Shown here in pieces: positions 44,798-56,648 of a stretch of DNA of 56,648 bases. Each line of letters opens with the position of its first letter. Position 1 is the first letter of the stretch. The notes under the pieces were generated by a model. That model was not told where the DNA came from and ran no database searches. It saw nothing but the letters and a program-made list of their open reading frames with translations. The translations under genes were made by a program, and so were the position numbers. Source of the stretch: a virus (Duplodnaviria > Caudoviricetes); the IMG/VR virus record IMGVR_UViG_3300032225_002228, positions 1-56,648 of that record; one strand, written 5' to 3'.

Positions 44798-45022
44798 ATG
44801 TCTAATTTGACAGAGTTAAATTATGACGAGGCTCACAAATTTGTTGAAAAAAATAAATTTCGTGGCTTTAAATGGAATGGATGGGACATAATTAAGTGGA
44901 CCAAAAATTCAAATGGATACTTTCAGACTAATGGTAAGTTTTCTGACAATGAATGGGGATATGAAACAAGAATCCCATTAACTGAAAACGGCACATGGAA
45001 AGTTCTTACCAAATATGTCTGA
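44798..45022 (+). CDS. Trp-rich hypothetical protein
   Basis: AGGA RBS; TGATATACT at 44753-44761. Confidence 0.7.
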   Translation: MSNLTELNYDEAHKFVEKNKFRGFKWNGWDIIKWTKNSNGYFQTNGKFSDNEWGYETRIPLTENGTWKVLTKYV

Positions 45023-45827: not shown

Positions 45828-45842
45828 TTAAATAGGAGTATT

Positions 45843-46139
45843 ATGTTAAAGTTAACAAATAACATGGCAGAGGTTGCTTTAAGTGATAAAAGTGTTGTAG
45901 CCTTTACTGCTGAATGGTGTCAACCATGTAAACAATTAAAGCCACATTTTGCCAAGGCGGCGGTGTTGGATAAAAACAATGATTATTTTGTTGTTGACGT
46001 GGATAAGATTGACAATAAATATATTGAACAGTATAATATTAAAGGCATTCCTGCTATATTCGTAATGTCAAATAATGAAGTAGTTCGTAATGTTTCTGCA
46101 AGAACCACAGAATCAATCATAGAAGAGGTTGCACAATGA
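45843..46139 (+). CDS. Thioredoxin
   Basis: FTAEWCQPCK, VDVD, GIP. Confidence 0.9.
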   Translation: MLKLTNNMAEVALSDKSVVAFTAEWCQPCKQLKPHFAKAAVLDKNNDYFVVDVDKIDNKYIEQYNIKGIPAIFVMSNNEVVRNVSARTTESIIEEVAQ

Positions 46140-46339
46140 ATAAATGGGAAAAGATTGGTAAATTTGTCGGAATTGTCGTAATTACCGGAATTAACGCATA
46201 TGTCTTTATTGACTTAATTCGTAACATTAGAGCCGATAAATCAATAGTGTCAGACCTATGTGCTATATTTGCTATAGCAGCATGGCAAAACACAATAAAA
46301 TTGTCCATCAAATGTCAAAAGAGTAGAACCCTAACATAA
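46136..46339 (+). CDS. Small membrane protein
   Basis: GAGG RBS, hydrophobic segments. Confidence 0.45.
   Translation: MNKWEKIGKFVGIVVITGINAYVFIDLIRNIRADKSIVSDLCAIFAIAAWQNTIKLSIKCQKSRTLT
46248..46269 (+). promoter_or_regulatory. TGTCAG-box promoter, only + strand copy: TGTCAGACCTATGTGCTATATT
   Basis: Matches the 22-bp consensus; about 80 nt upstream of the HslV-like gene. Confidence 0.65.
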
Positions 46340-46350
46340 GGAGAATCAGC

Positions 46351-46905
46351 ATGACATGTATTGCCGCAGTAAAACACAACAACAAAGTTTACCTCGGCGG
46401 GGATAGTGCATTGGTAGACCTGAATAACGGTAATAAGGTCAAATTAAATTCTCCTAAAGTATTTAGGTGCTACGAATATATTATAGGCTACGCAGGAAGT
46501 GCTAGAATGGGGCAATTGCTTCAAAATTACTTTGAGCCTACAGACCCACCTGACAATCCAGAGGAATTAGAATTTCACATGGTCACAACATTTATTGATG
46601 AGTTGAGAGCGGTGGCAGAAGAAAAAGCCTTACGACTAGATGCGAGCGATGAGCAGGTGAATGATTTTGCTCAGATTATAGTCGGAGTAAATGGAAGAAT
46701 CTTTGTTATTGAAGAAGATTGGCAAGCCTCTGAATGGGCATACGATTACGCTGCAATTGGGTCAGGATGTTCTGCAGCATTAGGCTCCTTATACACAACG
46801 CATAAGTTGGGCGTAGATCCGGAAATCCGCGTAAAATATGCTCTTATGGCAGCAACAGAACATACCTTAACAGTATCAGAACCATATCATATGGTAATTA
46901 AATAA
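46351..46905 (+). CDS. HslV/proteasome-beta-like Ntn protease
   Basis: N-terminal Thr (MTCI), GGDS, K, GYAGS, AIGSG..ALG. Confidence 0.8.
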   Translation: MTCIAAVKHNNKVYLGGDSALVDLNNGNKVKLNSPKVFRCYEYIIGYAGSARMGQLLQNYFEPTDPPDNPEELEFHMVTTFIDELRAVAEEKALRLDASDEQVNDFAQIIVGVNGRIFVIEEDWQASEWAYDYAAIGSGCSAALGSLYTTHKLGVDPEIRVKYALMAATEHTLTVSEPYHMVIK

Positions 46906-46943
46906 GTTACAGTAGTAACTTAAATTATATAAGGAGATATAAA

Positions 46944-47174
46944 ATGGCTGAAGTACCCGTTAGTAATGATGAACTAGAAGATATTGTCTCAGTTGTCGCA
47001 CATGAATTGTACTCAAAATGGGCTGTAGATGATAGATTTACAGAAGAACAAATAGAAGAATTTGCCGGGTATGCGGTAGAAGATACACTATTTGTTATTG
47101 GAATTTATATGGAAAAGGTTAACGAATTAATGGCAGAAAAACAAAAATTGTCTTTGCTCAATAATTTATCATAA
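46944..47174 (+). CDS. Hypothetical protein
   Basis: AAGGAG RBS. Confidence 0.7.
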   Translation: MAEVPVSNDELEDIVSVVAHELYSKWAVDDRFTEEQIEEFAGYAVEDTLFVIGIYMEKVNELMAEKQKLSLLNNLS

Positions 47175-47257
47175 CAATTCATCAATTGTTACTTAATCAA
47201 TGATAAAATAGTAATAAGCCACAGTCATTATTGGCTGTGGCTATAACTATAAAGAGG

Positions 47258-47617
47258 GTGATTGACATCAAGTTATTCCGCATAATAGATAAGAAAGTAG
47301 AAGTACTTTCTGATTTAGCATCGGAATGGTCTGGCAAACCTCTATTCCTCTTCCTTCATCTAATTTGGTGGGGTATATGGATCGGACTAGGAGTTGAGCC
47401 ATATCCATTTGGAATGCTCACACTAATCGTATCGCTTGAAGCCATTTGCTTGTCAGGGTTGATTTTATCAAGCCAAAATAGACAAAGAGCATATGACATA
47501 AAACTGTTGAAACAGACGCGCAATGCGTCAGCTGATACAGAAAATGCCGTAGAAGACATATATGAGGAAATACAAGACATTAGAAAAATACTTGAAGATG
47601 AGGCGGGGGATGAATAA
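47258..47617 (+). CDS. DUF1003-like membrane protein
   Basis: PYPFGMLTLIVSLEAICLSGLILSSQNRQ. Confidence 0.75.
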   Translation: MIDIKLFRIIDKKVEVLSDLASEWSGKPLFLFLHLIWWGIWIGLGVEPYPFGMLTLIVSLEAICLSGLILSSQNRQRAYDIKLLKQTRNASADTENAVEDIYEEIQDIRKILEDEAGDE

Positions 47618-47838
47618 TGATTAACATAATACTCTATATATCTATAACACTTAACATAGTATTAGGATATAAAGCATATAAAAACAAAAACATGTTACAT
47701 AAAGCCTATGACACTATAAATAGGCAATCAAACAATATTCTGACACTTACCAAGAGTATTGCTTATAAGTATTCTAAGTCTGATTTAACCTTTGAGATGC
47801 GTAGAAAACAGCTTCTTAAATCTTTAAATCGTAAATAA
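47617..47838 (+). CDS. Hypothetical protein, N-terminal TM
   Basis: Last + strand ORF. Confidence 0.55.
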   Translation: MINIILYISITLNIVLGYKAYKNKNMLHKAYDTINRQSNNILTLTKSIAYKYSKSDLTFEMRRKQLLKSLNRK

Positions 47839-47963
47839 TGTACACTGGTAAATTAAAATAAATACACTACTAATGTATAGATAATGATTTAGGTAGTATA
47901 AAATAAGACAATTCGGACATCGTAATCCGTATAAATATGGTCTAAATACAACGAAATCAGCAT

Positions 47964-48010
47964 AAAATCGGGTGAAATACTACGGAATTCGTAGCAAATA
48001 ACCCGATTTT
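47964..48010. repeat. Nested inverted repeat at the strand-switch point
   Basis: AAAATCGGGT...CTACG-GAATT-CGTAG...ACCCGATTTT. Confidence 0.7.
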
Positions 48011-48025
48011 GTGTGAAATCCCCCG

Positions 48026-48138
48026 TCAAAGTAATTTTTGATCTATTCGTAATCTATTTTTCAAAGTAAATTTGGGATGCATTCGTAATCTTTTTTTTGA
48101 TATAGACTTCAAAGTAAAAAATAGCTCTTTCGTAATCT
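48026..48138. repeat. Three direct repeats TCAAAGTAA-N11/12-TTCGTAATCT
   Basis: Copies start at 48026, 48061 and 48109. Confidence 0.8.
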
Positions 48139-48262
48139 TTTTGGGGGATGTTAATAGAACATATGGAGAACCCCCGGCTCCATGACCATTTGGAAACCGG
48201 GGGCATATCCCAACATTCGGGCGGCGGGTGAAACAACCCTAATTGCCCTTAACCAATAATGT

Positions 48263-48292
48263 ATTTTATCATACACTACTAATTTTTGTCAA
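48263..48292 (-). promoter_or_regulatory. Sigma70-type promoter TTGACA-18-TAAAAT reading into non-coding DNA
   Basis: Consensus with extended TG. Confidence 0.65.
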
Positions 48293-48600
48293 GGTGAGAT
48301 ATATTCTATTGGCTTAGGTAACTCTCCATATGCATAACTAGGTAGACTAAGTTCATCATCCAATGCATATTCCTTTATCTTCTTACATACTCTGATTATT
48401 TCATATAGGTCACTTCTTACGATACCCGCCTCGTATCTACGAGATTGCATATAGATATAAGCAATGATTGTGTTCCACAATTTCTCGTGAATAACATAGG
48501 GCATAGACGACAGGCGGTGAACGAGGGAGACCTCGTTGTACCTATAATCTGCTAAATTACTTTCTAATGCTTCTAGTACCTTATCTTCTGGCAACTTCAT
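48289..48600 (-). CDS. Hypothetical protein
   Basis: AGGAG RBS and own promoter. Confidence 0.75.
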   Translation of the reverse strand: MKLPEDKVLEALESNLADYRYNEVSLVHRLSSMPYVIHEKLWNTIIAYIYMQSRRYEAGIVRSDLYEIIRVCKKIKEYALDDELSLPSYAYGELPKPIEYISP

Positions 48601-48626
48601 ATTTGCTCCTAACTGTAGGAAAGGCT

Positions 48627-48648
48627 ATTGTATCAGATGCCTCAGACA
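48627..48648 (-). promoter_or_regulatory. TGTCAG-box promoter TGTCTGAGGCATCTGATACAAT
   Basis: 22-bp repeat copy. Confidence 0.7.
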
Positions 48649-48998
48649 TACTGAGCGCTGGGTACCACAGAAACAAGTGGGTCATCAGAACGAACCACAA
48701 TACATGGAGCTTGAATGCCTTCAGGACAGATGCAGTAAATCATATGAGCCTTGCACTTCATGCAACCAGTAAAACGTACCTCTGTGTCCCATTTGGTCCA
48801 GCCCACCAATGCAAAGGATGGGCGGACAGGGGTGGATGAATAAGGAATCCAAGGGGTACCTAGTTTATGTTCCTTTTGAGAGTTAGGTTCATCAAATGTA
48901 CCATCATATGATTCAATAGCATGCTTCATAGCATCAGTAAATCGTCCACGTTCACCTACATTAAATCCTAGGCTACGCAAGTATTCTCGTTTAGTCAT
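48642..48998 (-). CDS. Lsr2-like DNA-binding protein with Cys-rich C-terminus
   Basis: REYLRSLGFNVGERGRF resembles the Lsr2 RGR AT-hook domain; CxxC..CxC. Confidence 0.65.
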   Translation of the reverse strand: MTKREYLRSLGFNVGERGRFTDAMKHAIESYDGTFDEPNSQKEHKLGTPWIPYSSTPVRPSFALVGWTKWDTEVRFTGCMKCKAHMIYCICPEGIQAPCIVVRSDDPLVSVVPSAQYV

Positions 48999-49348
48999 AC
49001 ATTGTACTCCGTTCCATGCTCATCTTCCCAATTTAGAAATAGACAATTGTCATCTACATAGAAATGAAAAACCTTGTCTTCGATTTGACTATTCATCCAA
49101 TCAAGAGCCAATGCGGATTCTTCCCACAATCCCTGCGAAACATCTGCTTGGTCTTCTAGGGATAAGTCGTCATATTCAGCCATATCTTTTTCTAATTGAA
49201 CTTCGTCTACATCGTATCCATAAGAAATTGCTAACTTGATAATGCTATATGAAAGTGTATTTCCACTTTCACTACCACAATCAATCCAGCAACCATACGC
49301 ATCTGGACTGATACTATCATTGATGTTACTCTTCAGATTGTTGTTCAT
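48995..49348 (-). CDS. Acidic hypothetical protein
   Basis: GGAG RBS. Confidence 0.7.
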   Translation of the reverse strand: MNNNLKSNINDSISPDAYGCWIDCGSESGNTLSYSIIKLAISYGYDVDEVQLEKDMAEYDDLSLEDQADVSQGLWEESALALDWMNSQIEDKVFHFYVDDNCLFLNWEDEHGTEYNV

Positions 49349-49532
49349 ATTTCTCCAATAGGCTCAGGGCGTTAAACGCCTCTTCCATGTCTGTATCAGG
49401 GTCAAAGTAGTCTACCACAATCATATCCTTTAAGTCAAGTTTTTGTTCGTCCAACATCATGGGGGCGGAACAAAGAATACCTTGTTTCATAAAGTAACCA
49501 ATGTTTCCTCCCTTAGGTGCTACTACTCTCAT
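49326..49532 (-). CDS. Hypothetical protein
   Basis: ATGA-coupled. Confidence 0.6.
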   Translation of the reverse strand: MRVVAPKGGNIGYFMKQGILCSAPMMLDEQKLDLKDMIVVDYFDPDTDMEEAFNALSLLEKYEQQSEE

Positions 49533-49753
49533 AGATTCCCCACCTTTGTTGTTTCATCAGATAATTTGGTAAGTGCAGCATTTAGCCAATCATATGCATT
49601 TGCATCTTCTTTTATTTCAGATGGATGTGTATGCCGGAACTTGCCTGTGGATGTATCATAGATAGTTCCATCTTTCAAGAAATAATCTTCCCTAGATAGA
49701 TAGTAGTGACCTGTATTTCTATTATATGCAACTACAAAGTGATGCTCAATCAT
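49529..49753 (-). CDS. Hypothetical protein
   Basis: Start MIEHHF with GGAG RBS. Confidence 0.6.
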   Translation of the reverse strand: MIEHHFVVAYNRNTGHYYLSREDYFLKDGTIYDTSTGKFRHTHPSEIKEDANAYDWLNAALTKLSDETTKVGNL

Positions 49754-49755
49754 TA

Positions 49756-50025
49756 TTAGTTGCTCCATTCTTCATAGGAATAAGAAGGCTTATAATCTTC
49801 AACATCATCTGCATACTCGCGGTCTACATACTCATCTTCATAGCCAGCGTCAATTGCCATTTGCCACACGATGCCAAGGGCATCGTTGTCGCCACTCTGT
49901 GCATTCTGCCACACATCGGCGGGAATAGAGCGAATGAACTCTTCATCACTAATAGGAATACTAATCTCATCTGTCTGTGAAACAATAACGTCCTTGTATT
50001 GCTTAATGTAGTAGTAGTTACTCAT
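49756..50025 (-). CDS. Acidic hypothetical protein
   Basis: Start MSNYYY with AAGGAG RBS. Confidence 0.65.
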   Translation of the reverse strand: MSNYYYIKQYKDVIVSQTDEISIPISDEEFIRSIPADVWQNAQSGDNDALGIVWQMAIDAGYEDEYVDREYADDVEDYKPSYSYEEWSN

Positions 50026-50212
50026 CTGCATTCTCCTTATACCATTTGGCGTATGTATGAACGGTGAAGTCATCTTCAGCATCTTGTGCATAGTCTAGCA
50101 CATGGGTCAGACACTCAAAGGTGTCCACATAGTTATCACGGTCATAAGAATCGACATAGACCTCATAGAACACACCACTAGGTCCTCCATCGATTTGGTA
50201 CACATCTAGCAT
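50018..50212 (-). CDS. Acidic hypothetical protein
   Basis: GGAGG RBS; coupled. Confidence 0.65.
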   Translation of the reverse strand: MLDVYQIDGGPSGVFYEVYVDSYDRDNYVDTFECLTHVLDYAQDAEDDFTVHTYAKWYKENADE

Positions 50213-50391
50213 CAGAGTTCGTCCTCCCAGTCAAGTGGTTCCACATTGGATGCAGTCCAATTTTGATATGCAACGCATAGTGTTTCCCACAAATCAGACC
50301 ATTGCTCATCAGTGAGCGGAACAGAGTCGGGGAAGTCATGAAATCTATCAAATACCAATACATCTGGCGGGCAATTAGAAGGTGTATCCAT
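50212..50391 (-). CDS. Acidic hypothetical protein
   Basis: Start MDTPSN after AAGGAG RBS and promoter. Confidence 0.6.
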   Translation of the reverse strand: MDTPSNCPPDVLVFDRFHDFPDSVPLTDEQWSDLWETLCVAYQNWTASNVEPLDWEDEL

Positions 50392-50419
50392 TATCTCTCC
50401 TTTGTTGTAAGTAAGGCAT

Positions 50420-50441
50420 ATACTACCATACACCACTGACA
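50420..50441 (-). promoter_or_regulatory. TGTCAG-box promoter TGTCAGTGGTGTATGGTAGTAT
   Basis: 22-bp repeat copy. Confidence 0.75.
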
Positions 50442-50445
50442 CCGA

Positions 50446-50576
50446 TTCACTCAGGGTATCCTAAGTTCAAAATAGTTTCAAAATAAGATCGTAATGTCAT
50501 CGTAATGTCATCGTAATGGTGAATTTGCTATACATCGTAATGTTCGATTTGTCGCAAATGTCGGGCGGTGCCGCCC
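50446..50576. repeat. Intergenic cassette: CTCAGGGTATCCTAAG palindrome, 4x ATCGTAATG, GGGCGGTGCCGCCC
   Basis: ATCGTAATG at 50488, 50499, 50510 (11-bp period) and 50534; homologous to 55128-55220. Confidence 0.8.
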
Positions 50577-50587
50577 CAGCTCTTGAG

Positions 50588-50668
50588 TGCCTAACCTTGG
50601 AATCGAACCAAGCATACCGAATGGTGACGGTTTTACAGACCGCTTCCCCACCTTGGGGACTGTTAGGC
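50588..50668 (-). tRNA. tRNA-Tyr(GUA)
   Basis: GCCTAAC/GTTAGGC acceptor; GCGGT-CTGTAAA-ACCGT; long variable arm; TTCGATT. Confidence 0.82.
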
Positions 50669-50673
50669 GCGCA

Positions 50674-50695
50674 GGTGGGGGCTTTCGCCCCCACC
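50674..50695 (-). terminator. GC hairpin (GAAA loop on -) after the DUF932 gene
   Basis: GGTGGGGGC-GAAA-GCCCCCACC. Confidence 0.55.
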
Positions 50696-50701
50696 CTTAG
50701 A

Positions 50702-51682
50702 TTAGACTAACACCGACTTTACAATCGTGAGCAGGTTGTTCTTTTTAGCATTGTGCAAGTCATCCATGCCGCTAGCCTTGATAGCAATAGCCTCTGTGTT
50801 ATCCTTGCGCGGATTGGAGAAATAGTCCAAGTGTTCAGTCAGAGTTTGGTATGCACCCCAAGCCGTTCCTGCAATCATGATGTTTGTGGGGGCTGTGTAT
50901 AGGTCTTGCAACAAGTCCTGCTTAGTCTCCCACTTTTTCATGCTACCCTTTGCATCCTTGTCAGGCATTGGGAATGCGCGAACAACAATCTCATCAAACT
51001 GTGCTTTGGTGATTTCTGTCTCAATGAGAGCCTGAGCCTCTGCCTCAAACGCATCCATCCATCCATGAAGACGCAACATACCATCACGAGCATCTGCAAT
51101 ACGAGAAATTGCAGACTCGGTGTGGCGAATAGTAAATCGCTGTGAGCAATCTCCAAGAGCGATAGCCTGCGTGTTAGCGCAAACAACGCGGGTCGGGGTA
51201 ATCATTCCACTAATGGCAAGTGAACCATCGTGTGAAGTGTTAGCCACAAGATAGGTCTTGATTACATCTGCAACGCCTGTCGGGTCAAGAACAACCTCGC
51301 GGTCAAGGGCAGCAGTAGCAAATACCTGTGTGCCATTCTTGATAGAACCGATGGTCTCAATACGCAAGCCTAATTGACCAAGCCAATCAAGTGCGTCTTC
51401 GTTTTGGATTTCCTGATACTTCTTGCCGTTGATAGCAAGCACATCGGGATTTCCTGTTTCAGGATTGTCGCGCACCATCATAAACTTCTGAATCTTGGTG
51501 CTGTATCCATCTGGATAAACGACAGGCTCTTGACGAACATTCCAGCCTGACACCTTTGCGATGTCCATGCCCTCTTGTAGGGTGAACTCGTCAGTCAAGA
51601 CTGTGCCAAGTTTGTGCCATGCCTTCTCGCGCAACGAAACGAATGAAGCCTGACCATTTACGATTTCTAACTCGTGTGACAT
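50702..51682 (-). CDS. DUF932-family protein
   Basis: MSHELE, AWHKLG, QNEDA, SHDGS, TPTRVVCANT, IRHT, GTAWGAY. Confidence 0.85.
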   Translation of the reverse strand: MSHELEIVNGQASFVSLREKAWHKLGTVLTDEFTLQEGMDIAKVSGWNVRQEPVVYPDGYSTKIQKFMMVRDNPETGNPDVLAINGKKYQEIQNEDALDWLGQLGLRIETIGSIKNGTQVFATAALDREVVLDPTGVADVIKTYLVANTSHDGSLAISGMITPTRVVCANTQAIALGDCSQRFTIRHTESAISRIADARDGMLRLHGWMDAFEAEAQALIETEITKAQFDEIVVRAFPMPDKDAKGSMKKWETKQDLLQDLYTAPTNIMIAGTAWGAYQTLTEHLDYFSNPRKDNTEAIAIKASGMDDLHNAKKNNLLTIVKSVLV

Positions 51683-51713
51683 TATTTCTCCTTAGTTGGT
51701 GTTTGATAGCGCA

Positions 51714-51735
51714 AGCATACCATACGGGTCTGACA
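51714..51735 (-). promoter_or_regulatory. TGTCAG-box promoter TGTCAGACCCGTATGGTATGCT
   Basis: 22-bp repeat copy. Confidence 0.75.
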
Positions 51736-51812
51736 AGCATTACATCGGGGGGGTCTTAATAGATCGCAAATTGAGAGAATAGGGGCGGTGGCGCGGGAAC
51801 CATAGAACACAA

Positions 51813-51839
51813 AGGGGACAGGTGGCGAACCTGTCCCCT
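51813..51839 (-). terminator. Intrinsic terminator
   Basis: AGGGGACAGG/CCTGTCCCCT stem, TTTGTGTT tail on -. Confidence 0.65.
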
Positions 51840-51852
51840 CCATACTAGAGAT

Positions 51853-52032
51853 TTACTTCTTGCGTGAGTTAGGCGCAGGCTTAGCACTCTTGAGTGCGGT
51901 AAGCGAAATGTTATCGACAAATCGTCCCTGCTGACGAACGACAACGCGCTCTGACACAGAGCCATCGGGCATACTCCACTTCTCCAAGTAGGAGTAGGAC
52001 TTTGCGGGGGACTTCTTAGATGATTTACTCAT
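51853..52032 (-). CDS. 59-aa basic protein (not in ORF track)
   Basis: AAGGAG RBS; MSKSSKKSPAK...VVVRQQGRFVDN. Confidence 0.65.
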   Translation of the reverse strand: MSKSSKKSPAKSYSYLEKWSMPDGSVSERVVVRQQGRFVDNISLTALKSAKPAPNSRKK

Positions 52033-52056
52033 GTTATTCTCCTTGTGTTTGTTTGA

Positions 52057-52215
52057 TTAGTTTAGTGCGTTATTTAGTGCGATTGTCATTTGCGCAAAGA
52101 TTGAAACTAGAGAGTCATTCAATTCTCCGTCCAACTCATCATGTTCTTCTATAAAGTCTTGAAGTAATTCAAGTGCGTATTCCATTGCATCGGAATAACC
52201 TTCTTGGTATGTCAC
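52057..52215 (-). CDS. Small acidic protein
   Basis: GTG start after GGAGGTG; TYQEGYSDA. Confidence 0.55.
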   Translation of the reverse strand: MTYQEGYSDAMEYALELLQDFIEEHDELDGELNDSLVSIFAQMTIALNNALN

Positions 52216-52216
52216 A

Positions 52217-52411
52217 TTACACCTCCCCAACAATGCGAATAATGTCTGCATGACCAATTTTGCTTAGAAAATAATCAAGTTTCCATTTCTCAGTGACGAC
52301 AACATCAAAAACAGAAGTATCTTGCCTAGTAATAGGCAAACCCATAATCTCCGCTTCTGTTGATGCTACCGCCATGTCTGAACAATTATTTACTTTTATT
52401 GTTACAATCAT
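52217..52411 (-). CDS. Hypothetical protein
   Basis: ATGA-coupled to upstream ORF. Confidence 0.55.
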   Translation of the reverse strand: MIVTIKVNNCSDMAVASTEAEIMGLPITRQDTSVFDVVVTEKWKLDYFLSKIGHADIIRIVGEV

Positions 52412-52539
52412 TGAGTACCCCAATCTTTGTATTTTGGCTTTTTGTAGCCCCCCGATTTGATGGGTTTTTCGTGTTCACGACTTGTGTTCCAAGACTTGCC
52501 CTTGGGCTTTTTGCGTTGTGGCTTGCGCTCTTGTGTCAT
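52408..52539 (-). CDS. 43-aa Lys-rich protein (not in ORF track)
   Basis: MTQERKPQRKKPKGKSW...; starts 6 nt after a -10 (leaderless). Confidence 0.5.
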   Translation of the reverse strand: MTQERKPQRKKPKGKSWNTSREHEKPIKSGGYKKPKYKDWGTQ

Positions 52540-53270
52540 AGCACTACATTACCACTTTCGGAATATGTTGTCAAGCGTTTAGACATTTCTTCTAGTTCTG
52601 CCGCCGTAGGCGTGGGGCAATCATCAAAGAGATAGTCCAATTCCCATTTACCATTTGCTTTGTCATAGTAAATGTTGTCGCAAGCGTGACAATAACCCTT
52701 GCGTTCCATAAGTTCTACATGGCTATCGGGAATGTCCCACTCTTCTTTTTGGAGAACATTATCGCCTTGTAGTGTTACATCACCACCCCAGCCCTGTTCC
52801 TCTTCATACTCAATGTTGATAATCAAGTCGGGGTATTGCTTGGCTAGTTTCTCAATGGCTTCTAGTGGGGGACTCCAAGGGGTATCAAACTTGTAGGAAA
52901 TTGTGAGAGTACCAGCAAGTTCTATGTCGTCTAGCATTTCTACATCACCTGCGTCCCACTTGCAACCCCATTCACGCACATTCCAATGCCACCAATCTCC
53001 ACCTTCTGCAAGAGCCTTTGTGTATGACTCGGTAAAGTTATCTAGGTCTACCTTGTGTGTTGGTTCACCCCAATAAGTGTCAAGGTCGGTGGGGGAAATG
53101 ATGTTCCAGAAAGAGAAGGCAGACTCATGCACATCTTTTACATTCTGAACACCATCTTTGGTCATTGTCCTGTGGTTGGTTTCATACGGTTGTGCAAGTT
53201 TCTCCCTGACTTCATTCACCAAGTCGGTGGAACCTGTGATGGACAAGTTATTGAATACCCAATTAGGCAT
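52536..53270 (-). CDS. DUF1281/YubB ferredoxin-like domain protein
   Basis: MPNWVFN.L, WWHWNVREWGCKWD, FDTPWSPP, YPDL...YEEE. Confidence 0.8.
   Translation of the reverse strand: MPNWVFNNLSITGSTDLVNEVREKLAQPYETNHRTMTKDGVQNVKDVHESAFSFWNIISPTDLDTYWGEPTHKVDLDNFTESYTKALAEGGDWWHWNVREWGCKWDAGDVEMLDDIELAGTLTISYKFDTPWSPPLEAIEKLAKQYPDLIINIEYEEEQGWGGDVTLQGDNVLQKEEWDIPDSHVELMERKGYCHACDNIYYDKANGKWELDYLFDDCPTPTAAELEEMSKRLTTYSESGNVVL
52546..52574 (-). promoter_or_regulatory. Sigma70-type promoter TTGACA-17-TAATGT
   Basis: Consensus -35 and TG extension. Confidence 0.6.
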
Positions 53271-53523
53271 TGTTGTTCTCCTTAGTAGTTGATGAGGTCA
53301 TACTATCAGAAGGGTCTGACATTGGCTCATAGTAATTCAGTAATGACTGCATAGCGCCCCAACCTAATGAAATACATGCATTTTCCAAGTCTTCGGCAAT
53401 AGAGTCAATGGCATCTATGCATTGCTCATCAGTCCATTCAGGGTAGAGTGATTTTACATCTAGCGCACACCATGAGATGTTGGCTACTGGATTGGTCATT
53501 TGGTCTAACATTTGTTCTGACAT
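53263..53523 (-). CDS. Hypothetical protein
   Basis: AAGGAG RBS and own promoter. Confidence 0.7.
   Translation of the reverse strand: MSEQMLDQMTNPVANISWCALDVKSLYPEWTDEQCIDAIDSIAEDLENACISLGWGAMQSLLNYYEPMSDPSDSMTSSTTKENNNA
53300..53321 (-). promoter_or_regulatory. TGTCAG-box promoter TGTCAGACCCTTCTGATAGTAT
   Basis: 22-bp repeat copy inside the 3' end of the upstream ORF. Confidence 0.75.
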
Positions 53524-53550
53524 TTATTCTCCTTTGTTGTTGATGAGGAC

Positions 53551-53572
53551 ATCCTACCACATGGGTCAGACA
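53551..53572 (-). promoter_or_regulatory. TGTCAG-box promoter TGTCTGACCCATGTGGTAGGAT
   Basis: 22-bp repeat copy. Confidence 0.75.
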
Positions 53573-53808
53573 GAGGTTGCATCGGGGTCTAAGTGATAGG
53601 TGACGGGAAGTGGGAATACCTGAAAACCTTCATCTTGATTAGTAGTGTCTAAAAACTTTGTAAAGGCATCACTAAAAATAATTGCATCAGCAATTTCTTG
53701 CTTCCACTGCCAATCTTCCATTTCTACATTAGCCATTTCTCTGACAAAATTATCAAGAGAAATAGTAACTCTTAGGGGAATACTTACCTCTACTACACGA
53801 TTTTCCAT
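53566..53808 (-). CDS. Hypothetical protein
   Basis: AAGGAG RBS; stop codon supplied by the TGTCTGA box. Confidence 0.7.
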   Translation of the reverse strand: MENRVVEVSIPLRVTISLDNFVREMANVEMEDWQWKQEIADAIIFSDAFTKFLDTTNQDEGFQVFPLPVTYHLDPDATSV

Positions 53809-53832
53809 TTTATCTCCTTTTCTTGTAAGGTA

Positions 53833-53854
53833 ATCTTATCATAACCCTCCGACA
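53833..53854 (-). promoter_or_regulatory. TGTCAG-box promoter TGTCGGAGGGTTATGATAAGAT
   Basis: 22-bp repeat copy. Confidence 0.72.
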
Positions 53855-53866
53855 TCTGCAAGTCGC

Positions 53867-53909
53867 ATCGTAATGCCTAGATTCTCTCAAAGAGGGGGCG
53901 GTGCCGCCC
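53867..53909. repeat. Cassette elements ATCGTAAT and GGGCGGTGCCGCCC
   Basis: Same order as at 50.5 kb and 56.25 kb. Confidence 0.75.
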
Positions 53910-53922
53910 TTGTAAAAGCAAA

Positions 53923-53949
53923 GAGGGGCAGGTGACCAGCCTGCCCCTC
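53923..53949 (-). terminator. Intrinsic terminator
   Basis: GAGGGGCAGG/CCTGCCCCTC stem then TTTGCTTTT on -. Confidence 0.7.
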
Positions 53950-53967
53950 CATTCACCCAACCGTCCT

Positions 53968-54411
53968 CTAGTAAGTTCCGTTATCAAACTCCTGAATGGT
54001 GTAGTCATCATACAGGGCAGTTCCATCACCATTGTAGTTGATAGTAACATCAAAGTCATGGTCTTCAATTTTTTGACCAAGTGGCACAGAAATGGTGGCG
54101 GTGTAAACAATAGTCATCTCAATCTCAACCTCTTTGTCAAGGTCAATGCCAAGTAGTTCGGCAATCTCTGAAAGTTCATCAGTAACTTCATCATTTTCTT
54201 CTGCGTATTCTAGAATGTAGTTTCGCACACTCTGAATGCTATCAAAGAGTCGCTTGTGTTCTAGTTCTACATTTTCCAAGCGATTCACTTTTACTGAAAG
54301 GTCATGTGCATTTACTGAGTATTCCTCGGGTGGTCGCACAGCCACTACATGTGGATTTTTGGCTAGCACGATACTAGCCTCGGGGTTGTAGGTGTATGTT
54401 GTGTCGTTCAT
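53968..54411 (-). CDS. Acidic hypothetical protein
   Basis: Start MNDTTY after GAAAGG RBS. Confidence 0.7.
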   Translation of the reverse strand: MNDTTYTYNPEASIVLAKNPHVVAVRPPEEYSVNAHDLSVKVNRLENVELEHKRLFDSIQSVRNYILEYAEENDEVTDELSEIAELLGIDLDKEVEIEMTIVYTATISVPLGQKIEDHDFDVTINYNGDGTALYDDYTIQEFDNGTY

Positions 54412-54443
54412 TGTTTTCCTTTCGGTTGGTTTGTGAGATTTGT

Positions 54444-54465
54444 ATCTTAGCATAGGGGTCAGACA
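54444..54465 (-). promoter_or_regulatory. TGTCAG-box promoter TGTCTGACCCCTATGCTAAGAT
   Basis: 22-bp repeat copy. Confidence 0.75.
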
Positions 54466-54677
54466 CTAATGTATTCGGGGTCTAGGTTTAGAACACACCA
54501 AGAGCCACCCTTATTCATTTCAGTCATGAAGGTAGAAAACTCGGGGGTATCAACAAGAGACAAGCCAACAAGTTTGACAATAGTCTCTTGGTCGTAAACA
54601 TTAGTCGCGTATTGGACAAGAGGGTGATTCTCGTCAAGTTCGGCAATCATTGGGATAGAGAAGTTTAGTTTGAGCAT
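54459..54677 (-). CDS. Hypothetical protein
   Basis: GAAAGG RBS; stop inside the TGTCTGA box. Confidence 0.7.
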   Translation of the reverse strand: MLKLNFSIPMIAELDENHPLVQYATNVYDQETIVKLVGLSLVDTPEFSTFMTEMNKGGSWCVLNLDPEYISV

Positions 54678-54706
54678 TTTGTGCCTTTCGGTTGGTTTGT
54701 GTGATT

Positions 54707-54728
54707 ATCTTACCATGAGGGTCTGACA
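54707..54728 (-). promoter_or_regulatory. TGTCAG-box promoter TGTCAGACCCTCATGGTAAGAT
   Basis: 22-bp repeat copy. Confidence 0.78.
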
Positions 54729-54737
54729 AGGGTATGA

Positions 54738-54775
54738 GTGGGGGAAGCGAGTCGTTAGGGTCGCATTTCCCCCAC
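54738..54775. terminator. Hairpin between cassettes
   Basis: GTGGGGGAA-GCGA...TCGC-TTCCCCCAC. Confidence 0.5.
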
Positions 54776-54785
54776 CCACACTAGA

Positions 54786-54944
54786 CTACTTTACAGTAGT
54801 CCAGCGGTCTTGACCATTGACATCAAGGCGAACACGGAATGAGCCATTCTGATTCTGAATGACTTCCTGAACAGTTCCAACCGTTTCAGACTTTTGAGTC
54901 GTGAACAGCGAGCCAACTGTCGGGGACTTGGTGAGATTTACCAT
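54786..54944 (-). CDS. Small SH3-like beta protein
   Basis: Start MVNLTK after AGGA; VGSLFTTQKS..VGTVQEV...RVRLDV..RWTT. Confidence 0.65.
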   Translation of the reverse strand: MVNLTKSPTVGSLFTTQKSETVGTVQEVIQNQNGSFRVRLDVNGQDRWTTVK

Positions 54945-54980
54945 TTTGCTTCCTATCGTTGTAGTTACTGTGATAAGCAC

Positions 54981-55002
54981 ATCTTACCACAAGGGTCTGA
55001 CA
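54981..55002 (-). promoter_or_regulatory. TGTCAG-box promoter TGTCAGACCCTTGTGGTAAGAT
   Basis: 22-bp repeat copy. Confidence 0.78.
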
Positions 55003-55010
55003 ACCCTTTG

Positions 55011-55083
55011 CGACTCTAGGGGGAAGTCGAACCCCCTCTACTACCGTGACAGGGTAGTGTGCGAACCTTTACACTATAGAGCC
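55011..55083 (-). tRNA. tRNA-Asp(GUC)
   Basis: GGCTCTA/TAGAGTC acceptor; CTACC-CTGTCAC-GGTAG; G73. Confidence 0.88.
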
Positions 55084-55101
55084 TTGTTTAGTTATAGGAG
55101 T

Positions 55102-55123
55102 ACTATACCATACCCCTCTGACA
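55102..55123 (-). promoter_or_regulatory. TGTCAG-box promoter TGTCAGAGGGGTATGGTATAGT
   Basis: 22-bp repeat copy; ends 18 nt before tRNA-Asp with no RBS in between. Confidence 0.8.
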
Positions 55124-55127
55124 TCGT

Positions 55128-55220
55128 TTCACTCAGGGTACCCTAAGTAATAAGTTCAAAAGTGATCTATGTCATATCGTAATCACTTGACAAGCACTAA
55201 GAGGAGGCGCTGTCGCCCCC
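55128..55220. repeat. Intergenic cassette, second copy: CTCAGGGTACCCTAAG, TTCAAAA, ATCGTAAT, GC box
   Basis: 19/20 match to 50446-50465 and same element order. Confidence 0.8.
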
Positions 55221-55228
55221 GATCTTTG

Positions 55229-55301
55229 TGCGCCATGTAGGACTCGAACCTACGACCTACGGATTAAAAGTCCGCAGCTCTACCAACTGAGCTAATGGCG
55301 C
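55229..55301 (-). tRNA. tRNA-Lys(UUU)
   Basis: GCGCCAT/ATGGCGC acceptor; GCGGA-CTTTTAA-TCCGT; TTCGAGT. Confidence 0.92.
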
Positions 55302-55339
55302 GTGGCGGGGTTTTTAGAGAGACCCCAAACTCTTTAGGC

Positions 55340-55846
55340 TCACCAACTAGCCCGATAGATAAACCAATCATTCTCGCTATTAGACAACACGCGGTCAATC
55401 ATAGCGATGGTATTCTGCAAGTCTTGAAAATACCACTCGTCATACTCAAGTCCGCCAAAAAAGAATCCAGCGCGGGTAGGTAGAAGTTCCTCTGCCACCT
55501 TAGTAGAGTTATTGCTCTCATACTCTGAAACAGCAAGCGCACAGTAATCACGCAAGGTAGTAAGGTTATCACGACTCAAACCAATGTCTTGGCAGTTATC
55601 CTCGCCATCGGCAAAGTTCTCAACGATGTAGTTGTGAATAGAGTTAGCCTTGCGCCAATAACCGACAGGGATTCTTACAGTCATTCCCGTCCAAGAGTCG
55701 GGGTCAAGCAGGTGGGTAGCGTCAAGAATGGTGGCAAGATTAGTGAAAGTCTGATTGTCGGTCACATTCAAGTCACCACCCTCGCTGCGGTCATAGTCCT
55801 TTGCTGATACATACTTTTCGACATAGAGATACATGTCCAAGCCCAT
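55340..55846 (-). CDS. Conserved phage protein (MGLDMYL...YWRKAN...GFFFG...YRASW type)
   Basis: Recognisable motif set; GAAAGG RBS. Confidence 0.78.
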   Translation of the reverse strand: MGLDMYLYVEKYVSAKDYDRSEGGDLNVTDNQTFTNLATILDATHLLDPDSWTGMTVRIPVGYWRKANSIHNYIVENFADGEDNCQDIGLSRDNLTTLRDYCALAVSEYESNNSTKVAEELLPTRAGFFFGGLEYDEWYFQDLQNTIAMIDRVLSNSENDWFIYRASW

Positions 55847-55882
55847 TGTTATTGCCTTTCGTTGTTGGTGTTTGTTGAGATT

Positions 55883-55904
55883 ATTCTAGCACAAAGGTCA
55901 GACA
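55883..55904 (-). promoter_or_regulatory. TGTCAG-box promoter TGTCTGACCTTTGTGCTAGAAT
   Basis: 22-bp repeat copy. Confidence 0.75.
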
Positions 55905-56188
55905 TCATAGTCTGCGTCATAGTCATAGTCGGTAGTCCACGCGCCTAAATGGTGTTGTTCGATGATAGCCCAAGCAGGTGCTTCGCTCTTGCCCTTGTAT
56001 GAAACGCCTTCGGGCATAGGAATAAGCGCATCGCAGTCATCTGCCCAATAAGCGTCAATGGCTGTAATACAAGGCTCAACCATAGACAACGGGACGGGGG
56101 GATAGTGATTGCCTTGCAAGTGCCAACCAATAGCCTGCTCCATAGTAAGACCGCTATCGGCGATTTCCACAGAAGTCATGTAGCCCAT
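55898..56188 (-). CDS. Hypothetical protein (HLQGNHYPPVP...HHL type)
   Basis: AAGGAG RBS; stop inside the TGTCTGA box. Confidence 0.75.
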   Translation of the reverse strand: MGYMTSVEIADSGLTMEQAIGWHLQGNHYPPVPLSMVEPCITAIDAYWADDCDALIPMPEGVSYKGKSEAPAWAIIEQHHLGAWTTDYDYDADYDV

Positions 56189-56219
56189 TTATTTCTCCTT
56201 TGTTGGTGTGATAGAACAT

Positions 56220-56241
56220 ACTCTACCATACCCCTCTGACA
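56220..56241 (-). promoter_or_regulatory. TGTCAG-box promoter TGTCAGAGGGGTATGGTAGAGT
   Basis: 21/22 identical to the 55102 copy. Confidence 0.8.
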
Positions 56242-56281
56242 TCGTAATCATCGGGGTGGGCTTAAGGGGGCGGTGCCGCCC
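56241..56281. repeat. Cassette elements ATCGTAAT and GGGCGGTGCCGCCC
   Basis: Same order as other cassettes. Confidence 0.75.
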
Positions 56282-56418
56282 TATTCAAAACTCTTGATTA
56301 GGGCTGGATTGTAAAATGATGAATTAGGGTCTGCGCATTTTTCATAGCATAAATGACACAGTGGAATATTATCTACTTGTTCACTAGAACCACGACACAA
56401 GAAACATTTGTCACTCAT
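56281..56418 (-). CDS. Small Zn-finger protein
   Basis: Start MSDKCFLC...CHLC. Confidence 0.55.
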   Translation of the reverse strand: MSDKCFLCRGSSEQVDNIPLCHLCYEKCADPNSSFYNPALIKSFE

Positions 56419-56569
56419 AGGGAAGACTCTCCAACTGTCGAATGTATTTATCTGTGAAGTTGTCCATTGACTTGACAAAATTTTCCCATGCTTTATCTCC
56501 AAAGTCCCTCCCAACAGAGTCAGTAAACCAATCGCGGGGGAAAAAGAATTTGCGGTCTTGTGCTGGCAT
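56411..56569 (-). CDS. 52-aa hypothetical protein (not in ORF track)
   Basis: AGGA RBS; MPAQDRKFFFPRDWF... Confidence 0.55.
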   Translation of the reverse strand: MPAQDRKFFFPRDWFTDSVGRDFGDKAWENFVKSMDNFTDKYIRQLESLPYE

Positions 56570-56603
56570 TAGTATCCTGCTTTCTCTAAGATTTGTAAGA
56601 GTG

Positions 56604-56633
56604 ATTGTATCTCATTAGGGGTCAATTTGTCAA
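56604..56633 (-). promoter_or_regulatory. Sigma70-type promoter TTGACA-18-TACAAT
   Basis: Consensus hexamers upstream of ATG 56569. Confidence 0.6.
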
Positions 56634-56648
56634 TAGCATCTTGGTCAA

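Follow-up and report, generated by a model that had tools for sequence, protein, structure and literature searches.

The window analysed here, a stretch of 56,648 nt (genome G000), holds part of the genome of an environmental phage with relatives among the Streptomyces phages of the Stanwilliamsviridae. Its terminase is 62-65% identical to that of Streptomyces phages of the Loccivirinae, and its DUF932 protein is 42% identical to that of the Boydwoodruffvirinae. Core genes and gene order are those of a Stanwilliamsviridae-like actinophage; the succession helicase, primase, Pol III alpha, MazG, UvsX, terminase, tRNAs, tmRNA, thioredoxin and arm is that of phage Jay2Jay. By arm we denote positions 48289-56648 (8360 nt), and by rest the other 48,288 nt of the window. 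The following features were mapped.

47839..48288, no strand: convergent junction between plus-strand genes and the minus-strand arm (ORF map), AT-rich, with short direct repeats and a hairpin
48251..56648, no strand: purged domain, running to the end of the record, its far edge lying beyond it
48289..56514, minus strand: about 20 small ORFs, mostly acidic, without a known family (ORF list)
48905..48934, no strand: doubling of contig depth in run X1, candidate outer edge of a long terminal repeat (contig depths)
50096..55906, minus strand: promoter-like motif in eight copies (repeat families D1, D3 and D5)
50424..56266, minus strand: four larger intergenic cassettes (repeat family D2, alignment, site contexts)
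50587..50668, minus strand: tRNA-Tyr (gta) (ARAGORN), containing one surviving TCGA
50702..51682, minus strand: DUF932 (TIGR03299-type 'phage/plasmid-like') protein, 326 aa (Pfam PF06067, E 9e-45)
52536..53270, minus strand: acidic 244-aa protein with a DUF1281_C ferredoxin-like domain (Pfam PF18406, E 5e-11)
55010..55083, minus strand: tRNA-Asp (gtc) (ARAGORN)
55228..55301, minus strand: tRNA-Lys (ttt) (ARAGORN), containing two of the four AGCT (55276, 55290) and one of the seven TTAA

The junction has a GC content of 0.28-0.36, direct repeats D14 and D15 at 48033-48142 and an inverted repeat, I1, at 47961-48013. As originally noted, the small ORFs of the arm are acidic: 14 of 21 have a pI below 4.8, compared with 7 of 36 small ORFs elsewhere, a property that would be compatible with DNA mimicry. 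Only 4 of the 22 scanned arm ORFs match a PHROG or Pfam family, and the matches are confined to DUF932, DUF1281_C and three PHROGs of unknown function. Of the marker genes identified for the arm, DUF932 is conserved most widely; the arms of the related genomes G001-G004 and G006 contain homologues, as do the two terminal repeats of Jay2Jay, and it is the sole arm gene present in every arm examined. The DUF1281_C protein, with 48 acidic and 19 basic residues, has homologues in the arms of G001-G003 and G004. The promoter-like motif reads TGTCWGACCC followed by TG-n-TAnnnT on the transcribed strand (plus-strand positions 50104, 51726, 53312, 53563, 54456, 54719, 54993 and 55895). Eight of its ten matches in the whole record fall in the arm, all in a single orientation, and these eight are probably promoters of single genes; a sigma-70 consensus scan gave no fit to the copies. 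Each of the larger cassettes (50395-50590, 51685-51850, 55084-55230 and 56190-56330) combines a GC-rich hairpin, ATTACGAT repeats and the promoter-like motif.

The arm is locally depleted of short palindromes. On recount, the sites that had been reported by manual scan were reproduced exactly: GATC occurs four times (50487, 51762, 55164 and 55221), AGCT four times (48708, 50578, 55276 and 55290) and CCGG once (49634). All three words are common outside the arm, as had been noted, with 91, 133 and 56 copies, respectively, in the rest. The original prediction of a few dozen occurrences in the arm holds for GATC (33 expected from the dinucleotide and 29 from the trinucleotide content of the arm itself) and AGCT (30 and 19), but is too high for CCGG (14 and 8). 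Computed windows also show the loss to be regional: of all 4-kb windows in the record, the four with the lowest pooled palindrome observed/expected ratio (O/E) fall in the arm. Several further losses had been overlooked. TTAA is found 7 times in the arm, where 25-41 copies are expected, and 464 times in the rest; ATAT, TATA and AATT are low in the arm as well, whereas CTAG and CATG stay common there. Pooled 6-mer palindromes reach an O/E of 0.33 in the arm compared with 0.86 in the rest. GGCC and ACGT are purged genome-wide, with 0 copies of GGCC in 56.6 kb (arm 0 versus 20 expected from dinucleotides) and 12 of ACGT in the whole record (arm 3 versus 21 expected from dinucleotides).

Shuffling synonymous codons of 20 arm ORFs 2000 times gave mean counts of 28.4 for GATC (s.d. 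3.9), 25.4 for AGCT and 7.8 for CCGG, and none of the 2000 shuffles was as low as observed for any of the three words. The minima in 80 windows of the same size within 1-48288 were 10, 13 and 3, respectively. Among 136 4-mer classes compared with the shuffles, the four lowest are all palindromes, as are 7 of the 12 lowest, and the median z is -3.6 for palindromes versus +0.6 for other words (Mann-Whitney p = 8e-5), which supports a depletion specific to palindromes. It is not an effect of GC content: the arm is GC-richer than the rest (0.44 versus 0.36), and on that ground more copies of these words would be expected in it. The onset is sharp: for pooled GATC, AGCT, CCGG and TTAA the maximum-likelihood change point lies at 48250, where the density falls from 15.4 to 1.9 sites per kb.

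The surviving sites sit in constrained or fast-turnover sequence, namely tRNAs and intergenic cassettes. The tRNA genes hold two of the four AGCT, one of the seven TTAA and three of the 11 TCGA survivors of the arm. All four GATCs lie in or beside three of the four larger cassettes. They had been described as intergenic throughout, which is strictly so for three of them, since 51762 falls within the final codons of ORF 51756-51965, provided that this is a genuine ORF. The accompanying idea that the retained GATCs are methylation-sensitive switches fared badly: the four sites share no common position in the aligned cassettes, cassettes are swapped out in other strains, and a strain 95-97% identical to the window has no GATC in the stretch matching 50487.

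The same pattern recurs among relatives. The homologous arm contains the four 4-kb windows with the smallest pooled palindrome O/E in 6 of 6 freshwater genomes, with 4-mers and with 6-mers alike. Six arm proteins of the window have homologues in roughly equal order in the arms of G001-G003, which indicates that the arm is ancestral and not a recent import. The set of purged words differs from lineage to lineage. The 13.8-kb arm of G006 contains no AGCT (48-58 expected; 282 in the rest), two GTAC (48 expected; 307 in the rest) and one TTAA (42-51 expected; 254 in the rest), with no shift in GC (0.470 versus 0.482). In the 14.0-kb arm of G004, ATAT (3 observed, 50-60 expected), TATA (8, 46-55), CATG (3, 41-57), TTAA (19, 72-112) and AGCT (10, 41-43) are depleted, and AATT stays common (134 versus 123-137 expected). 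The 5-mer GAWTC is absent from the G004 arm (0 of 28 expected; 152 of 186 in its rest), and GCWGC is found once in the G006 arm (1 of 20 expected; 157 of 157 in its rest). An unbiased gap scan over the 136 4-mer classes ranks arm-internal palindromes at the top in G000, G004 and G006. Counting against the restriction reading given below, the effect is mild in G001-G003 (arm-to-rest ratios 0.5-0.75), and in G001 some words of low frequency in the rest are more frequent in the arm (TCGA 24 versus 35, CGCG 6 versus 0). We know of no Type II enzyme for ATAT or TATA, both purged in G004, and part of the signal may thus have another cause.

Two observations indirectly support a position of the arm near a genome end, the gene order of Jay2Jay and a step in contig depth, although neither proves a physical end or first entry. 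Jay2Jay carries an exact 11,438-bp direct terminal repeat that starts about 3 kb past the thioredoxin gene; its DUF932 module lies inside the repeat, with DUF932 1.6 kb from the end. In the assembled contigs of one run, X1, depth steps up at about 48.92 kb: the record over 46700-48934 has a depth of 13.9, and the records from 48905 onward have depths of 27.1, 22.1+5.69, 30.1, 29.2, 25.1 and 28.4, the bubble of 22.1 + 5.69 equalling 2 x 13.9. This step could equally stem from co-assembled strains sharing the arm. Such strains do exist, as the break of contigs at about 48.92 kb shows; those of X2, X5 and X6 align only from 48884-48994 rightwards, where their likeness to the window stops. Two further points speak against a terminal repeat. 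The onset of the purge at 48250 precedes the depth step by about 650 nt, and the purge coincides, in every genome inspected, with the block of genes on the opposite strand, a block (897-18527) that in Jay2Jay is longer than the repeat.

In our view these data are best explained, with a probability of about 0.6, if host restriction enzymes have exerted their selection within a single domain, one that is exposed early and is probably terminal. The arm would be the early, host-takeover-type module of a phage of about 100 kb with a DnaE-type polymerase, probably infecting a freshwater actinobacterium, and would comprise small acidic proteins, each with its own promoter-like cassette, together with tRNAs and the DUF932 gene. 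By position and gene content it appears to be the counterpart of the long direct terminal repeat in Streptomyces phages of the Jay2Jay type. This would place it at one or both ends of the virion DNA, presumably repeated at both, and it would enter the cell, or act, first. Type II restriction enzymes of the host would have cleared short palindromes from it wherever coding and RNA function allow. That the rest keeps most of its palindromes suggests that it is shielded, either by later entry or through protection by arm products, much as with the first-step-transfer DNA of T5. Recurrence in 6 of 6 freshwater genomes with lineage-specific words is the pattern predicted by restriction-enzyme selection. 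The original prediction, which had argued along these lines, is supported in part, by the specificity of the purge for palindromes, its recurrence and the acidity of the ORFs. The GATC switches are not supported, and at cut-offs of E <= 0.001-0.01, neither the 22 arm ORFs of the window nor the 74 of G004 and G006 matched a known anti-restriction family (Ocr, ArdA, ArdB/KlcA and others) in PHROG or Pfam.

The arm agrees with the first-step-transfer DNA of T5 in that restriction sites are lacking in it but are present, and tolerated, in the rest. T5 injects its DNA in two steps, and its injection stop signal and A1/A2-type proteins are known. Like the arm, the T5 block spans roughly 8-14 kb and holds small early genes mostly of unknown function; it lies in or near a long terminal repeat, as the arm probably does. 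According to PMC10644984, T5-like phages resist Type I and Type II restriction unless sites are present in the first-step-transfer region, within the terminal repeat of approximately 9.7 kb; it is in this block alone that restriction sites matter, as would be the case for the arm. The compositional likeness is mild (pooled 6-mer palindrome O/E of 0.63 in the T5 block versus 0.83); the T5 block shows no 4-mer palindrome purge (GATC 24 versus 20-29 expected), whereas in the arms analysed here several 4- and 5-mers are near zero. Phage family and host phylum are unrelated, and the 22 arm ORFs gave no PHROG or Pfam match to the T5 pre-early proteins A1, A2 or Dmp, which makes any likeness functional and not one of descent. 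Jay2Jay (Stanwilliamsviridae, Boydwoodruffvirinae) resembles the window in overall gene order and in a repeat that carries the homologous DUF932 (42% identity) and small minus-strand genes with gaps between them, and is GC-richer than the rest. In contrast to the arm, its repeat shows no extra purge (pooled 6-mer O/E 0.74 versus 0.60 in the remainder of its genome); GATC is absent genome-wide, as are several GC-rich 6-mers. A second cultured relative, Gilson, likewise lacks a local purge, with no 4-mer depletion in the 48 kb seen; judged from a repeated gene pair, it has only a short end repeat. In Autographiviridae (Murciavirus, T7), the available portion of PMC12455610 reports experimental proof that only motifs in the first-entering DNA confer restriction sensitivity; those are Type I motifs in a genome of about 45 kb whose repeats are 532 nt long, and that portion describes no widespread loss of short palindromes. 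Leading regions of conjugative plasmids also enter first, are GC-richer, carry anti-defence genes and, in some plasmid groups, have fewer 6-bp palindromes, but they enter single-stranded and, in the part of the preprint available, its authors report no 4-bp palindrome difference (bioRxiv 10.1101/2025.04.03.647016).

Three other accounts of the purge have to be weighed against host restriction. The arm might have its own history or codon adaptation, being GC-richer and tuned for fast translation. This would agree with the higher GC in the arms of G000 (0.44 versus 0.36) and G004 (0.41 versus 0.37), in the Jay2Jay repeat (0.55 versus 0.485) and at the right end of Gilson, with arm proteins diverging faster than terminase (30-55% versus 65-72% identity), and with a Jay2Jay repeat free of purge once trinucleotide-corrected. 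Plasmid leading regions, too, are GC-richer and codon-adapted and, as far as the latest version of bioRxiv 10.1101/2025.04.03.647016 is accessible, without general depletion of restriction targets. Yet shuffles that preserve proteins and codon usage do not reproduce the loss, which is concentrated on palindromes; the strongest purge is that of G006, which has no GC shift, and arms homologous across lineages have lost different words in each, all of which makes this account rather improbable. About as doubtful is a constraint on DNA or RNA structure or on silencing, under which AT-rich and self-complementary words would be shunned in the early module so as to evade a host nucleoid silencer (Lsr2, for example), spurious promoters or hairpins in highly expressed early transcripts. 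GC is raised in most arms, an Lsr2-like gene is annotated in the Jay2Jay repeat, and TTAA, ATAT, TATA and AATT are low in the G000 arm, with ATAT and TATA nearly absent in G004. However, GC-containing words are equally purged (GATC, AGCT and CCGG in G000; GTAC, AGCT and GCWGC in G006; CATG and GAWTC in G004), AATT stays common in G004 as do CTAG and CATG in G000, and a stable hairpin is impossible from a four-base word.

The arm could also be avoiding a nuclease of the phage itself, an early endonuclease, encoded or triggered by the arm, that destroys host DNA at short palindromes; the arm would be site-free to survive, and the rest would arrive or replicate after the nuclease is switched off. 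A model of this kind for the T5 protein A1 is stated, as Davison's proposal, in the available part of bioRxiv 10.1101/866236. The Jay2Jay repeat is annotated with two ParB-like nuclease domain proteins and an HNH endonuclease, and a local, sharp-edged purge fits as well as it does with host restriction. We nevertheless hold this account to be quite unlikely. Scans of arm ORFs, 22 from G000 and 74 from G004 and G006, revealed no nuclease domain. Moreover, 8-12 different 4- to 6-bp words are purged per phage, in sets that differ between close lineages; such diversity is to be expected of varied host enzymes but would require the phage to have many nucleases. The loss of GGCC and ACGT is genome-wide, so that some avoidance, at least, is not tied to the arm.

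Host restriction acting on an early-exposed domain leaves room for a more specific proposal, in which DNA delivery or exposure in two stages is combined with a broad, sequence-independent shield against Type II enzymes, provided by DUF932 for the DNA that follows. DUF932 is a candidate because all the arms examined have it, as does the terminal repeat of Jay2Jay, and because it lies beside an actinobacterial plasmid relaxase gene; DUF932 genes occur on 120 plasmid records, mostly actinobacterial, and in the single context looked into, DUF932 precedes a MobF relaxase gene by 1.7 kb. We regard this proposal as speculative and its truth as unlikely. Taken together, our results suggest that, of all the phage DNA, this block of small early genes has the greatest exposure to host restriction. 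Should the DUF932 proposal be true, the protein would supply the activity that was sought in T5 and not identified there, and the words purged in each lineage would serve as a record of the restriction enzymes that its uncultured hosts possess.

Within the arm, the block of minus-strand genes that occupies 48289-56648 and runs to the end of the record, GATC occurs four times (50487, 51762, 55164 and 55221), AGCT four times (48708, 50578, 55276 and 55290) and CCGG once (49634), compared with 91, 133 and 56 copies in the rest of the window; every site coordinate in the original prediction is correct. Since the arm is richer in GC than the rest (0.44 versus 0.36), these words are expected to be commoner there, not rarer. 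From the arm's own dinucleotide and trinucleotide content, respectively, 33 and 29 GATC, 30 and 19 AGCT, and 14 and 8 CCGG sites are expected. Synonymous-codon shuffling of 20 arm ORFs (n=2000), with proteins and codon usage preserved, gave 28.4 ± 3.9 GATC, 25.4 AGCT and 7.8 CCGG, and 0 of the 2000 shuffles reached the observed low counts. The minima over 80 arm-size windows within 1-48288 were 10, 13 and 3. Composition expectations, synonymous shuffles and same-size windows thus rule out chance as the cause of the purge. As determined by maximum likelihood, the change point for the pooled words falls at 48250, less than 40 nt from the predicted start of the arm, with 15.4 sites per kb before and 1.9 after it. 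The regional depletion is therefore real, and it is stronger and wider than had been claimed.

TTAA, which had escaped attention, is lost as strongly as the other three words (7 in the arm versus 25-41 expected; 464 in the rest). Two five-base words are also low in the arm only: GGWCC (2 versus 11 expected; 32 versus 33 expected in the rest) and CCSGG (0 versus 4.5 expected; 35 in the rest). GGCC is absent from all 56.6 kb (expected 53-74 in the rest and 17-20 in the arm), ACGT is low genome-wide with 12 copies in all (3 in the arm, 9 in the rest), TCGA is halved across the whole record, and CCWGG is low everywhere, occurring once outside the arm versus 42 expected. Since GGCC, ACGT and CCWGG are scarce record-wide, genome-wide avoidance coexists with an arm-only purge. 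Pooled six-base palindromes show observed/expected ratios (O/E) of 0.33 in the arm and 0.86 in the rest, or 0.60 versus 0.93 after four-base content is factored out.

The loss in the arm is palindrome-specific. Against the synonymous shuffles, the lowest four of the 136 four-base word classes are GATC, ACGT, AGCT and TTAA; palindromes account for 7 of the 12 lowest classes, although they are 16 of the 136, and their median z is -3.6 versus +0.6 for other words (Mann-Whitney p = 8e-5). CATG, CTAG, CGCG, GCGC and TGCA show no depletion in the arm by the same shuffles, so it is the particular words listed that are lost, and symmetry in general is not disliked.

From 48054 onward all ORFs are small and on the minus strand. 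The small acidic ORFs anticipated for the arm are there: 14 of 21 have a pI <4.8, whereas the rest has 8 such ORFs among 68, or 7 among its 36 small ones. The anti-restriction genes expected among them were not identified in a scan of 22 arm ORFs against Pfam and PHROGs, in which three matched a family: one PHROG of unknown function and the two proteins below.

50702-51682, minus strand, DUF932 protein (family match)
52536-53270, minus strand, DUF1281_C protein (family match)

Eight arm genes are preceded by the motif TGTCWGACCC followed by an extended -10-like element, TG-n-TAnnnT; 8 of the record's 10 matches to this motif lie inside the arm, all in the same orientation. Four larger cassettes additionally carry a GC-rich hairpin and ATTACGAT repeats, and three tRNAs lie between the genes. 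A sigma-70 promoter scan of the arm gave no excess (18 matches versus 20.5 in shuffles), so the cassette motif is not a consensus sigma-70 promoter; a terminator scan likewise gave none (6 versus 6.6). The arm has the look of a takeover module read by the host polymerase, and we infer that it acts early. The word ATTACGA(T) and its complement recur at the junction and in cassettes (47900-47926, 48046-48142, 50480-50560 and 53866-53874), with up to four in a row before tRNA-Tyr, and may be a regulator binding site.

DUF932 had no match in the PDB by sequence (best E 0.099), nor had the DUF1281_C protein. An AlphaFold2 model of DUF932 (46 sequences; mean pLDDT 78.3) found nothing at E <= 0.001 with Foldseek (best 0.06), and its best VIA-align hit (Z 5.7) is under the level common by chance; lesser matches are scattered YbjN- and secretion-chaperone-like folds (Z 3.3-4.6). 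These model-based fold searches allow no inference of function, and a literature search returned no title or abstract bearing the term DUF932. Homologues occur in 120 plasmid records, mostly actinobacterial, and in the one genomic context inspected it sits amid spaced small genes, 1.7 kb upstream of a MobF relaxase gene. This proximity is a lead, not evidence, pointing to a shared 'first DNA in' function. Two Streptomyces plasmid records have DUF932 within 1.5-3 kb of one of their ends, which echoes its near-end place in the Streptomyces phage Jay2Jay.

Among the surviving sites, two of the four AGCT copies (55276 and 55290) are inside tRNA-Lys, and 3 of the 11 TCGA copies in the arm are within tRNAs. 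The GATCs had been placed in intergenic cassettes throughout; this holds for three of the four, and the one at 51762 sits in the final codons of a doubtful ORF adjoining a cassette. The ~6.7 kb of arm coding sequence thus contains 0-1 GATC, 1 AGCT, 1 CCGG and 0 GGCC. In contigs of other sequencing runs, unrelated sequence of much the same length takes the place of cassettes and of some small ORFs (50400-50600, 51750-51860, 52030-52420 and 53520-53920), with joints including 50467-50577 and 51771-51853, while the flanking genes are 90-99% alike; spacer turnover is faster than that of the genes. Cassette alignment revealed no common position for the GATCs, and a strain with 95-97% identity in the arm (L002) has no GATC in the 2 kb spanning 50487. 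The suggestion that the retained GATCs are methylation-sensitive switches is therefore unsupported, and we interpret them as sites recently acquired by spacers that turn over rapidly, rather than as conserved switches.

The window is a partial genome whose plus-strand genes encode a DnaB-like helicase, a primase, a Pol III alpha-type polymerase, MazG, a UvsX-like recombinase, a Cas4-like nuclease, RuvC, a terminase with an HNH partner, dCMP deaminase and thioredoxin, along with tRNAs and the following features.

19027-30287, plus strand, sugar-nucleotide/glycan biosynthesis island
39705-40907, plus strand, additional glycosyltransferase
41054-41338, plus strand, tmRNA-like gene with a 20-residue tag (ARAGORN)

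The island comprises a hexapeptide transferase, DegT-type aminotransferases, two epimerase/dehydratase-like genes, a dehydrogenase and four glycosyltransferases of families 2 and 11. Scans of all 68 plus-strand ORFs called in 1-48 kb against Pfam or PHROGs revealed no DNA methyltransferase. Among cultured phages, the closest relatives are Streptomyces phages of the Stanwilliamsviridae (terminase 62-65% identical), and the window has the gene order of Jay2Jay, in which a tmRNA is annotated at the syntenic place (record 97949-98231). IMG/VR contains 564 terminase relatives (the best 80 were retained), and the runs in which parts of the arm occur carry freshwater or lake-water labels. Near-identity searches against 50,697 phage records returned no match for the arm and a tRNA only for the 30-48 kb part; a related-locus search with the HslV-like protein adjoining the arm found none. 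Over the tRNA-Asp and tRNA-Lys stretch (55000-55331) contig depth is 190-2750 in all four runs aligned, so many other genomes in the samples evidently share these tRNA sequences.

Jay2Jay carries an exact direct terminal repeat of 11,438 bp, with DUF932 located 1.6 kb inside it in both copies. After the thioredoxin gene, the Jay2Jay repeat starts at ~3 kb, the purge in the window at 2.1 kb and a depth step in the window at 2.8 kb. In run X1, which is perhaps the source sample and hence non-independent, the assembled contig over 46700-48934 has a depth of 13.9, and those from 48905 on have 27.1, 30.1, 29.2, 25.1 and 28.4; a bubble sums to 22.1 + 5.69 = 27.8, that is 2.0 times 13.9. This doubling is exactly what a collapsed terminal repeat predicts, and is equally open to other strains sharing the arm without its flank. 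Contigs of runs X2, X5 and X6, which cover the arm in part, cease to match the window at 48884-48994. If the repeat is present at both ends, the arm would enter first from either end. A terminal, first-entering position is plausible: Jay2Jay synteny and the X1 depth step indirectly support the end position that had been predicted. In view of the cultured relatives, any simple rule should be treated with caution. In Jay2Jay the repeat is GC-richer and has no local purge; over its full 133,531 nt this genome lacks GATC (~350-475 expected in the unique part alone), AGGCCT, GCATGC and GTCGAC, and GACGTC is nearly absent. The Streptomyces phage Gilson has a short end repeat only and, in its right arm, a plus-strand gene of DUF932 size; in the 48 kb examined, it lacks GATC and shows no four-base purge.

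We compared five long related freshwater records with a DUF932 homologue (G001-G004 and G006), and all five have an opposite-strand arm with DUF932. Homologues of six of the window's arm proteins occur in G001-G003, with their order roughly conserved; the arm is therefore ancestral to the group, and a recent foreign insert is ruled out. For four-base and six-base palindromes alike, the four 4-kb windows with the lowest pooled O/E lie within the arm in all six genomes. G004 and G006 are as extreme as the window, with different words gone. In G006 (88001-92341 plus 1-9500, 13.8 kb; GC 0.470 versus 0.482) the arm has AGCT 0 (expected 48-58; rest 282), GTAC 2 (48; rest 307), TTAA 1 (42-51; rest 254), CASTG 1 (33; rest 119), GCWGC 1 (20; rest 157) and GGWCC 0 (23; rest 92). 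The G004 arm (32001-46000, 14.0 kb) has ATAT 3 (expected 50-60; rest 755), TATA 8 (46-55), CATG 3 (41-57), TTAA 19 (72-112), AGCT 10 (41-43) and GAWTC 0 (28; rest 152). The edges of both zones are sharp when resolved to 1 kb, each zone is coextensive with the opposite-strand block, and in a gap scan of all 136 four-base classes arm palindromes rank first in the window, G004 and G006. A mild though real effect is seen in G001-G003, where the O/E of GATC and AGCT is 0.5-0.75 times that of the rest. A few words that are scarce in the rest are more frequent in the arm (TCGA and CGCG in G001, GCGC in G003), so arm avoidance is not always a superset of that in the rest. The flanks of the G004 zone (27000-32000 and 46000-48000) reach densities of 18 ATAT and 23 TATA per kb, reminiscent of the non-coding, repeat-rich border of first-step-transfer DNA in T5. 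A WhiB-family gene inside the purged G006 arm (8681-8965) is consistent with an actinobacterial host and with a role in early regulation.

The lost words fit Type II enzymes: MboI/DpnII (GATC), AluI (AGCT), HpaII/MspI (CCGG), MseI (TTAA), HaeIII (GGCC), RsaI (GTAC), NlaIII (CATG) and TfiI (GAWTC). On the basis of these results, selection by host Type II enzymes on one domain only is the best-supported reading of the purge, and local restriction-type purging of an early module, as originally predicted, is well supported; the original interpretation as a whole is partly supported. Host enzymes would select against sites in this domain, and the remainder of the genome might be shielded by later entry, an arm-encoded inhibitor or host shut-off, with the acidic ORFs as candidates. 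There is precedent in T5. Its relatives resist Type I and II systems except when the ~9.7-kb repeat carries sites in its first-step-transfer DNA, and the product that protects them has yet to be identified (PMC10644984); for Autographiviridae, another study finds that motifs matter in the early-injected region only (PMC12455610). In our T5 control (positions 1-50000), first-step-transfer DNA has no purged four-base word (GATC 24 versus 20-29 expected) and a mild deficit of pooled six-base palindromes (O/E 0.63 versus 0.83). The idea is the same, but the actinophage arms are a much stronger case.

Three other explanations were weighed. Adaptation of composition or codon usage in a distinct module would suit a block of raised GC content; the words are lost relative to shuffles that preserve codon usage, and we consider it improbable. 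Avoidance of AT-rich words or silencer sites has in its favour the loss of ATAT and TATA from the G004 arm, which is the piece least well explained by restriction, as we know of no enzyme for either word; CCGG, GGWCC and CCSGG are among the words lost from the window arm, and this explanation is similarly unlikely. A phage-encoded early nuclease, of whose sites the arm must be free, would also confine the loss to one domain. The family matches in the window arm are two DUF proteins and a PHROG of unknown function, and we give this possibility an equally small chance. Selection by host Type II enzymes is preferred.

The purge is an unusually clear case of an already known phenomenon. To our knowledge, surveys of phage restriction-site avoidance handle genomes as wholes. 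A 2025 paper describes the location of sites as not yet addressed (PMC12455610), and our search of the literature on site or palindrome avoidance in phage terminal repeats or early genes found no comparable purge described. In this uncultured phage clade, a sharply bounded domain of ~14 kb is almost devoid of four- and five-base palindromes that the remaining 85% of the genome retains, the effect being mild in G001-G003. Such a purge offers a sequence-only marker of the early-exposed domain, and probably of genome ends, in metagenomic phage contigs. The purged words provide a route to inferring the restriction specificities of uncultured hosts, and the conserved arm genes, namely DUF932, the DUF1281_C protein and the homologues of 54786-54980, 55340-55846 and 55898-56188, form a short list of candidates for a protective activity that would spare the rest of the genome.
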